Assembly: GCA_977017645.1 (NCBI GenBank)
Contig: OZ360242.1
Coordinates: forward strand, 55,428,001 to 55,492,000
Source of the DNA: Torpedo marmorata
Taxonomy: Eukaryota
Reading direction: 5' to 3'
DNA length: 64,000 bases
Shown: in pieces, positions 8,101-11,100 of the stretch
Numbering within the stretch: position 1 is the stretch's first letter
Layout: each line of letters starts with the position of its first letter
The notes under the pieces: generated by a model
The model's database searches: none
Seen by the model: the letters and a program-made list of their open reading frames with translations, nothing else
What the model was told of the DNA's origin: nothing
Program-made: the position numbers and the translations under genes

Positions 8101-11100
8101 TCGCATTAAATCGGGGCGCGTAAAATCGAGGTTTCACAACTGTATTGTGACTTGAGATCTTTCACCAATTAACTAAGCATTGGATACTATGTGTTACAAT
8201 ATGTGTAACCTATGATTCTGCAATTGGTGTTTATGGCTTTTTCAAAATCCATTTTAGTTTGTGTTGCTGACTAAACAGGTAACATAGGAGACATTGAAGC
8301 TGTTGTAGTAGCTGAATTGTTTTCCCTCAATATGGGGGGAAAATTGTAGGCAACATGTTTATAACATTTGAAGTTTCTTTGAGTTTCGTGAGTGAAAAAT
8401 TAGAACTTTGTAGGAAGTTTTTAATACACTGGCAAAAGCTCGAAGCCATGCCAGCAAAATGCATTTTTGCATGATAGGACTTCGAAATACAGGAAGTTTG
8501 CATCTGGCGATTGAAGGCATCGAATGCTTTTCTGTCGTTGTGCAGTAGTAATTGCAATGATTTTACATGCTGTGATATCCTATTGTGAACCTTTAAAGGT
8601 TAAACTATAGTTTTGGGCATACATTTGATAATGCTATTGGTTTATATTTTGCTAAATATTTAAGGACCAGATTTATTACACATATTCTCCTCCAGATCAG
8701 ACTGTAAAGAGTTAATAGCCGCTGCTATCTCCTGCTGTGAGATAGGCTGCTCCAATTTAAGTTTATTGTCTGAGGAGAATGTTAGCTTGTCTAGAAAATT
8801 CCATTTTGAAGTTCGATCTTGAGCAAGATCAGAACTGTATAATTTAGAGTAAACCTGATAAAAAGTATCATTTATTTCAGCATGATCGCTAGTGATTTTA
8901 CCGTCAGCTGTGCGGATCTCAGCAATAAGCTGTTTAGAAATCTGGTTTTTAATTTGGCTCATTAAAAGTTTACCAACCTTATCCCCATGGACATAAGCTT
9001 GTATAGGGTCAGTAAGTAATAAATCAATCTAGTTTTAAGTTCAACCCTCTTTCTAAAAAGCTCAGGTTTCGGGGCTGTAGCATATTGTTGATCAATAAGT
9101 TTTAATTTAGCAGCCAAATCGTCTCTCTGAGTTTGCCTTCTAAGATTAGCCGTGTAGGAAATAATTTGACCTCTAAAGGCATCCCAGACTATTAAGTCAG
9201 AAACCACCGAAGAGGTATTTTCATTTATATTAAAAAAAAGACGATTTGGTCTTTCATAAATTCCAAAAAATCAGAATCAGATAATAAAAGAGGATTAAAT
9301 CTCCATTGTCTAGTAGTCTTAAGTAAGTCTGGCATATTAAAAGATAAAACCACCGGGAATGGTCCGAAATTATTATACTTTCATAATTACAAGAATCAAC
9401 AGTAGGAATTAATTGTTTATCCATGAGAAAGTAATCAATACGTGTATATGTATGGTGAACCCCAGAAAAGAAGGAAAACTCTTTATCATCAGGGTTAAAA
9501 AATCTCCACATATCAATAATACCAGATTGTAACATAAAGGAATTAATACAGCACCAATAGCCTGAATATGAACAGCACAAATAGCCTGAATACGACTGGG
9601 ATTGTCTGATCTCGGAAGCTAAGCAGGCACAGGACTGGTCAGTACTTGGAGGGGAGACCGCCAAGGAACACCAGGTGCTGTAGGTTTCTGTGAGGGGCGC
9701 TGGACAAAATAGCGACCCTCTGTCTGCCTTACGGTAGACAAAAATTAAAGAATTTCATGTATGTTACATTCTAAATGTCGTATTACGTGACAATAATGGA
9801 ACCTTTACCTTTACCTTTATAAGCACAGCTGACTTATTTAAACTAGCGGTTTTGCGAGACGAACGGTCGAGAATTGGATCACGCCAACAATTTAAGTCGC
9901 CGGCTATAACCAAAGAATATATATTTAAATCTGGTAATAAAGAGAAAAGACTTTCAAAAAATTGTGGATCATCTGTATTAGGAGCGTAGATATTGACGAA
10001 GACATAAAGCTTGTTATATAATTTACCAGATAACATAACAAATCAACCGTTGGTATCGCTAATTAACTCATGTTTAATAAAAGGTAGTGATTTATCTATT
10101 AAAATTAAGACTCCCCTGGATTTGGCCATAAACGCTGCATGAAACTGTTGTCCCTTCCAGAAACCTAAAAAACGGGGAATATTAGATAGACGAAGGTGAA
10201 TTTCTTGTAAAAGTATAATCTGAGTTTGGAACTTTTTAATATGTGGAAATACCTTCCTCCTTTTAACTGGGTTGTTCAAACCAGAGGTATCCCACGACAA
10301 TAACTTCAAGTCTTTAACCATCTAAAAACTTAAAATAGTATACCTTATTTGATGGCATTTAGGACCCACTGGCATATAGGGAACACCCCCCCCCCCCCTT
10401 ATTTTTAGCGTGAGATTTCAGGAAAAATTTGTTTGTGTATTTACCTTCACAGCAGCAACACGTCTTCCTGCCCGCCGCACGCCAAGACTCAGGCTGCTTT
10501 CCCCCCCCCCCACCGTCCAAACGCTAATTGATTGACAGGTGTGTCGGGGCGCGCGAGGGTGGGAGGGAGGGAAGCCAGGACAATGGGCAGGACCCAGGCC
10601 CACCGTCGCGGGGAGCAGATGATCGGTCGCTTGCTTTGAGGGGAGCGCTGGGCCTCGGTGATCAGGCTCCACGCTGAGCCTTTGTTCGACGCGCACGGCC
10701 CCCCGAACAGATTGAATGAGGGGCGGGTGGCACTGAGCGAGCGGCCTGTTGAGCTGAGCTTGACAGGCCACTCGCTCACTGCCACCCGCCCCTGCGTCTC
10801 ATTCAATTTGCTCGAGGGTCCGTGCTCGTCGAACAAAGCCTGATCATCGAGGCCCAGCGCTCCCCTCAAAGCACTGTTGGTGAGAGGGAGCGGGCGGGAG
10901 GGAGAGAGCGGGAGCGAACGGGCGGAAAGGAGAGAGCGGGCGGGAAGGAGGGAGAGAGCGAGCTTTCTTACTGGGGGAAGTGAGCGGCGGCGACTCCAGA
11001 AAGCATGAGCCACCCAAGGGAAGGTGGTCCGCGAAGCTGCGGGCCCGCTTCCTAGACTCCACTCGGTGCCCAAAATGGCGGCACCAAAATGTCACCTTTG

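Follow-up and report, generated by a model that had tools for sequence, protein, structure and literature searches.

Our analysis suggests, with a probability of roughly 0.7, that the repeat at 9548..9818 on the forward strand of the window (the whole stretch of 64,000 nucleotides that was analysed) is a SINE in which a 5S rRNA-derived head has been placed on a two-ended Rex1 remnant. The initial annotation had recognised the head and the Rex1-like tail, and it missed the likeness of the middle of the element to the 5' end of Rex1.

To define boundaries and family members, contigs of the runs X1, X2, X4 and X5 were aligned and X8 and X14 were also used, these being six of the 20 runs with matches. 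X2 (nine pieces at low depth) was excluded from the organisms counted as carrying the family, and X1 is perhaps the source sample and hence not independent. X8 and X14 are only guessed to be RNA, and their contigs therefore give no information on transcription. Statements on published work refer to the accessible parts of the cited papers.

Anatomy and insertion of the SINE

The head (9572..9687, forward strand) is identified by its Rfam match (RF00001), its fold and its T runs. The 5S_rRNA match is full-length over 9568-9686 (45.8 bits, gathering score 38, E 2.5e-6), and the fold has a z of -4.0, reached by none of 200 shuffles. In the SINEBase criteria, as given in the accessible part of PMC3531059, a SINE3 carries a 5S-derived head of at least 60 nt at 60% identity or more, and the match above threshold places the SINE there. 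Compared with published 5S primer sites, 14 of 21 and 18 of 21 letters are identical. The 5S nature of the head as initially annotated is thus confirmed, its length being about 119 nt and not about 140 nt. The other two of the three Rfam rows in the window are a sub-threshold mir-503 hairpin, found on both strands of a strong inverted repeat at 7959-8031 which is probably the centre of a MITE of about 7650-8150.

From the sequence and the Rfam alignment, an internal control region was placed at 9617..9663 (forward strand), with box A at 9617-9631, reading AGCTAAGCAGG from 9617, an intermediate element at about 9633-9638 and a box C-like stretch at about 9646-9663, the positions being assigned by what we take to be the standard 5S numbering. 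Box A starts where it had been annotated, and box C lies about 4 nt away from its earlier placement. These boxes would act as the Pol III promoter of the SINE, which is their role in 5S genes (PMC3123226).

The head ends in TTT without a four-T terminator, as had been noted. TTT is found in the SINE only at 9685, at 9753 and in the tail, and no run of four T occurs inside the element, whereas two X2 contigs resembling true 5S genes have four T at the place of the TTT. The next four-T run downstream lies in the flank at 9850 for this copy and in the T8 of the tail for the second copy.

Contig loose ends place the 5' end of the family at 9572 (99 in X1) or at 9580 (182 in X4 and 504 in X5, where ACAGCACCT precedes), the second position being due to a small indel. 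The 24 nt in front of it (9548..9571, forward strand) are a duplicate of the element's 5' end, identical to 9572-9595 in 22 of 24 letters, and rare in the family (X1 depth 2,861 and 67,976 in two bins versus about 2.5 million in the element); a re-priming slip during insertion is the likely cause. At the other side, loose ends in X1, X4 and X5 lie behind a 3' end at 9807-9819, next to the (ACCTTT)3 tail at 9801..9818 (forward strand). The extent 9548..9818 therefore stands at its 3' side, while its first 24 nt are missing from most family members.

Between the head and (ACCTTT)3 lies a body of 110 nt with three hairpins (fold z -5.4 and -5.6), giving a SINE of about 250 nt, which ends with a 32-nt hairpin followed by a GGAACCTTT / GGAACCTT tail. 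For the second hairpin (9721..9740, forward strand, 8-bp stem), no significant match was found in the window or in the 31 related loci described below.

The first letters of the SINE, TACAGCACC (with an additional T in X4/X5), 9547-9555, form an exact reverse complement to the 3' end of the head (9673-9682) and depart from a published 5S 5'-end primer (12/21). Helix I seems to have had its 5' strand rewritten into a perfect stem, and 9596-9603 versus 9607-9614 may be a second such case. What looked like a compensatory change in helix II of the head was discarded, since a published fish 5S primer carries identical letters.

The insertion site is marked by ATA at 9546..9548 (forward strand), found again at 9819-9821, which is either a 3-nt target duplication or a microhomology. 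The empty-site joint from 9545 to 9819 (skipping 273 letters, with 3 shared letters) was seen in 6, 2 and 8 contigs of X1, X4 and X5. As these contigs probably stem from further copies of the LINE around the insertion, they fix the boundaries and do not show a polymorphism. The interrupted sequence is an older endonuclease frame (9254..10100, reverse strand), which we take from its motifs to be of L1/Tx1 type and which reads through the site without a stop once 9546-9818 is left out.

A second copy at 27165..27297 (reverse strand) is 5'-truncated and consists of the last 9 nt or so of the 5S part, the whole body and a tail running into T8. It is 97.8% identical to the first copy over 134 nt (3 differences). 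The recent amplification proposed before holds for a subfamily only, since the family as a whole occurs in several organisms and shows fixed differences. A tRNA gene search of the window found none.

Resemblance of the body to both ends of Rex1

The first body hairpin (9692-9720) and the letters behind it (feature 9692..9723, forward strand) resemble the first 30 or so nt of Rex1, as judged from the fold, the heads of labelled Rex1 families and a motif test. In detail, 9695-9723 matches the first 30 nt or so of shark, ray and teleost Rex1 consensus sequences in the accessible part of PMC13343379 Table S2, of which the first 400 letters per family were compared. The form of the middle common in X4 and X5 is GGCGCTGGACAAAGTGGCGACTCTCTG (the window sequence with 9709, 9711 and 9717 set to the majority letter), and the corresponding heads are GCGCCGGAGCGAGGCGACTCTCTG in ScyCan_Rex1-3 (from position 1), GGCGCCGGTAACTGGCGACTCT in HypSab_Rex1-6 and GGCGCTGCACTAGTGGCGACT in AntStr_Rex1-1, ScyCan_Rex1-3 and the X4/X5 form sharing 12 straight identical letters. 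The 8-mer GGCGACTC occurs six times in the same accessible part of the table, which is about the chance count, so that only its position is informative: the three occurrences in Rex1 rows all belong to the first 30 letters of the 400 compared, the other three lie elsewhere. GGCGC followed by GGCGAC at the 5' end is found in five rows, all of them Rex1, among the 22 rows listed for [TA]GGCGAC (two 7-mers with 28 rows in all), and a AAGATGGCG start is also present in two L2 rows. The 5' motif derived from these heads has no matches in 143 kb other than both SINE copies and the upstream end of one related locus (L016), and it is found in 47 of 200,000 shuffles.

From this likeness we consider it likely that the middle of the SINE derives from Rex1 as well as the tail; the match covers about 25-30 nt at the 5' end of the clade that the tail points to, and it holds at clade level only. 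The copies in this window differ from the Rex1-like form at 9711 and 9717, where each difference between the window subfamily and X4/X5 turns a G-U pair of hairpin 1 into a standard pair, a small hint that the fold may be kept. The SINE middle gave no significant alignment to any of the 31 loci or to the window, and a small hairpin resembling hairpin 2 that lies upstream of the ends of L002 and L003 fell short of significance.

The strongest alternative, which we regard as unlikely, is a 5S SINE with only its tail from Rex1, the middle being of other origin and its likeness to Rex1 heads a product of chance or of convergence between GC-rich hairpins. It would fit the shortness of the match, a motif that was set after viewing the SINE, the lack of a source for hairpin 2 and the two matching letters which the window copies miss. 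Against it, the Rex1 matches in the accessible table all lie at the 5' terminus and in shark, ray and teleost families alike, and the 12 straight letters of ScyCan_Rex1-3 as well as the shuffle count would have to be accidental.

The Rex1-type 3' end (9748..9797, forward strand) consists of AAGAATTTC, a hairpin at 9755-9790 closed by TC...GA, and CAATAA. The SINE and the Rex1 LINE of the window share a plan of AATTTC, a hairpin closed by TC...GA, CAATAA and a 5-6-nt repeat, and the window holds the paired motif four times, in both SINE copies, at the LINE end (5616) and in a stub of about 45 nt (62183), where 200 Markov resamples give an expectation of 0.015 per window. The two end motifs which the initial annotation saw in the SINE and the LINE are therefore borne out.

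The LINE (5575..6746, reverse strand) is 5'-truncated, with a 13-nt terminal hairpin and (ATTCTG)2, and was recognised by PF09004, by reverse transcriptase similarity and by peptides at Rex1 primer sites. YSSAFNT and QRLYFVR lie 570 nt apart, the published span being 573-575 bp (PMC4635592, PMC3728117, accessible parts), and no other pair in the window scores as high (50 versus 36 for the next and 20 plus at most 8 for the window's CR1). At the DNA level the Rex1 primers fit poorly (7 and 14 mismatches). The top matches of the LINE among named proteins are those of Narcine (76%) and Pristis (73%), and a tree without a labelled Rex1 row places it beside the protein of Narcine (99/98) and apart from the window's CR1, which makes a ray the likely host. 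No database match is named Rex1, so that the label was tested indirectly. The near full-length elements L002 and L003 are 58% identical to it and carry LPSILLANVQSLDNK, the N-terminal motif of labelled Rex1 in the accessible Table S2 of PMC13343379. On these grounds we accept the LINE as Rex1; tails of 5-7-nt repeats are also described for Rex1 (PMC4635592).

Further Rex1 material was observed nearby and elsewhere. The stub (62145..62190, reverse strand) has the same 3' end and little beyond the terminal hairpin and tail, and older Rex1-like fragments lie at 39252-40430 (forward) and 63189-63470 (reverse), the former seemingly internally deleted and ending near AAGAATTTC at about 40400, with the second motif unclear. 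Exons of a host gene, presumably the ubiquitin protease USP7 from the reading of the translation, lie at 38730-38880 and about 40450-40600 (forward). A CR1-type reverse transcriptase frame at 19336-20970 (reverse) is open over 544 aa and belongs to a young copy. Fish Rex1 elements were also present on several metagenome contigs (L001-L019), where they are host DNA. The Rex1 protein found no loci in the viral collection, and exact 23-nt tail patterns had no matches in the metagenome, viral and prokaryote collections.

Among 31 related loci, 17 were inspected for their ends, of which 10 gave no usable end and 7 gave usable fish LINE ends. Five of the seven (L001-L004 and L006) show [G/A/C]ATTTC-like letters, a hairpin between TC and GA, [C/T]AA(A)TAA and a 5-6-nt repeat, their motifs lying 16-38 nt apart, and the other two (L010, L011) fit loosely. 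The stem sequences of the LINE ends differ, and the stretch from motif to motif varies from 10 to 38 nt. Between GAATTTC and GACAATAA the SINE has 32 nt and the window LINE has 13 nt, and L002-L004, with AAGAATTT and hairpins of 27-34 nt, come closer to the SINE in layout than the window LINE does. In part of the family the letters are CAATAAAGG (27 X1 contigs). In seven CR1/L2/L1-type control stretches, some of which may miss the true LINE end, the motif pair was found in none, in line with the Rex1/Babar assignment of the initial annotation.

When the whole tail was aligned locally with the LINE ends, the scores were not significant, 8 to 59% of shuffles being as good for all but L010, and L010 (37 of 2000 shuffles) was no better than a CR1 control (41 of 2000). 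As whole-tail alignments are at chance level and the motifs are kept, it is the plan that is shared and not extended sequence. The tail anchors, like the 5' motif, were picked by eye after viewing the SINE, which makes the shuffle counts optimistic. The 3' end of the SINE is built like Rex1 3' ends, and from these motifs a tail of the Rex1 clade is very probable. A LINE with the exact tail was found neither in the window nor as a well-supported interior loose end in X1/X5 (24 of 455 listed), so that the partner can be assigned to the clade and no further; it is likely a long-hairpin Rex1 family absent from the window.

The partnership with a Rex1/Babar LINE proposed initially thus survives as a tail plan common to the clade, and the window's LINE itself is probably a cousin and not the tail donor, because its hairpin has 13 instead of 32 nt and nothing aligns upstream. 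That this short-hairpin Rex1 (5575-6746) did donate the tail, the SINE hairpin being lengthened later by a fold-back insertion, we hold for rather improbable. It shares the longest exact motifs with the SINE, GAATTTCATG and CATGACAATAA with one mismatch, and the second motif becomes complete through a G-to-A variant at 9787; this variant is however of the kind that CpG decay produces, and the hairpins of other fish Rex1 are naturally long. Moreover the repeat units differ, and the upstream score of 20 was equalled in 1188 of 2000 shuffles. As a source of enzyme for the SINE the window LINE could still serve.

Somewhat less probable still is a 5S SINE moved by an L2, CR1, RTE or Tx1 clade that shares the two short motifs by chance. 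Many LINEs of these clades likewise end in a hairpin and short repeats, and the exact partner was not seen among the 24 of 455 loose ends listed. The vertebrate SINE3 partners in the accessible parts of PMC7245038 and PMC5786205 belong to the CR1 group or to RTE. The motif pair is however missing from all seven controls and kept in Rex1-type ends, and the middle also points to Rex1.

Abundance of the family and proposed origin

Pieces matching the SINE number 25,113 in X1, 13,942 in X4 and 19,603 in X5, each end of the element adjoining dozens to hundreds of different flanking sequences. Its summed depth relative to the flanking L1 family is about 190-fold, 2,200-fold and 580-fold in X1, X4 and X5, which is not a copy number. 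Likewise, the piece counts are not exact copy numbers, and they agree with a short, interspersed SINE3 of more than 100 copies with a body beyond the RNA-derived part. The junction between 5S and body is bridged, with 31 or more letters on each side, by at least 14 pieces among 32 listed (two in X1, six each in X4 and X5). As contigs from three organisms bridge it, the junction is recurrent, as the annotation supposed, and belongs to an abundant family; that a real 5S SINE family exists is virtually certain, and it is likely an abundant repeat of rays. At least 95% likeness was found in 17,912 of the 25,113 pieces in X1 and in 5,515 of the 19,603 in X5, the latter with fixed differences: a young subfamily is nested in an older family common to several organisms. 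A one-off 5S pseudogene beside an unrelated insertion, or a LINE targeting 5S genes, although the window has a single full head and such a LINE, Mutsu, exists (PMC10946416, accessible part), is refuted by the same junction in the second copy and in three organisms, by a depth continuous from head to tail and by flanks of unrelated sequence instead of 5S repeat spacer.

In X14, eight contigs fuse non-5S sequence to the SINE body at 9685. The consensus of this sequence resembles a tRNA 3' end, presumably of Thr type, suggesting that a tRNA-headed sister SINE with the same body is likely present there. Also in X14, a T-to-C variant at 9753, in the first tail motif, accounts for 63% of the depth (18 contigs) versus 0.5% in X5, the DNA run of the same organism, perhaps due to a few strongly represented copies. 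The tail depth exceeds that of the body in X5, X8 and X14; this was not taken as the partner LINE, since body mismatch, truncation, sister elements or a tail-derived MITE are possible causes.

In the origin which we propose, the interior of a Rex1 element would have been deleted with both ends retained, and a template switch would have joined the 5S head at its terminator. With loss of a terminator T (now TTT), Pol III would read through to the next four-T run. The Rex1 protein would then recognise the terminal hairpin and start copying on the 6-nt repeat, and where copying ends early, 5'-truncated copies such as 27165-27297 would result; such priming would leave a duplication of at most 3 nt, frequent 5' truncation and occasional 5' duplication. 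Transcription by Pol III and mobilisation by Rex1 enzymes are inferred from the sequence, the steps following established SINE biology (PMC5786205, accessible part).

Comparison with known SINEs and their LINE partners

No 5S-Rex1 SINE was found in the literature searched, which did not cover subscription papers, Repbase Reports and Dfam, and the accessible parts of PMC5499810, PMC6274825, PMC3531059, PMC10946416 and PMC10886601 do not describe this family. To this extent the initial suggestion of an undescribed family holds, and the family may well have an uncurated entry in a database. With a 5S head on the two ends of Rex1, the LINE partners of vertebrate 5S SINEs as well as the donors of SINE middles would gain a clade. 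This also bears on the open question why two-ended derivatives come from some LINE clades only, and the body of the SINE offers candidate RNA signals for the Rex1 clade, for which no test of such signals was found in the literature searched. In practice, the SINE provides ray phylogeny with a marker of high copy number and is likely to cause false 5S rDNA signals.

Rex1 is assigned to the CR1 group in its wider sense and lacks ORF1, and its content in rays is among the highest of the vertebrates sampled (PMC13343379, accessible part). The first point softens the contrast with CR1-partnered SINE3 families; the second fits the list of two-ended LINE donors. In the accessible text of PMC5786205, ORF-less two-ended LINEs come from RTE, Ingi, Vingi and R2, only RTE and Vingi are donors of SINE middles, and the word 'Rex' does not occur. 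We would tentatively suggest, at somewhat less than even odds, that Rex1 is a further clade spawning two-ended protein-free derivatives, of which a ray module made of the 5' and the 3' hairpin received Pol III heads at least twice, from 5S and from tRNA, and reached very high copy. If this is true, Rex1 lacking ORF1 like RTE, Vingi, Ingi and R2, single-ORF LINE proteins would need both ends of their RNA, and the 110-nt body would represent a minimal Rex1 recognition signal.

The SINE is not a new kind of element. Ped-1, CoeSINE5, SINE-1_Pmo and HaSE3 likewise join a 5S head to 5' and 3' pieces of a LINE and have, as is likely here, tRNA-headed sisters that share the body; their donor is RTE, in contrast to the Rex1-type donor of this SINE (PMC5786205, PMC3747384, accessible parts). 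Zebrafish SINE3, AmnSINE1 and OS-SINE1 are similar in their 5S head, LINE-derived tail and fish lineage, but are DeuSINEs with CR1-4_DR or RSg-1 tails (PMC3747384, PMC7245038), and vertebrate SINE3 families in the accessible part of PMC7245038 use the CR1 clade. By their description there, the present SINE is probably set apart from DeuSINEs by its body of about 110 nt, filled by three hairpins, in which there is little room for a DeuSINE, CORE or V-SINE central domain. The sole SINE-Rex1 pair in the accessible table of PMC3747384 is SINE2-5_NV with Rex1-24_NV from Nematostella, where the SINE of this sea anemone has a tRNA head instead of a 5S head and no two-ended design is stated. Finally, HE1, SacSINE1, SINEX-1_CM and CmiSINE are SINEs of cartilaginous fish like this one, but with tRNA heads and HER1/CR1 or L2 tails (PMC3747384, PMC5499810, accessible parts).
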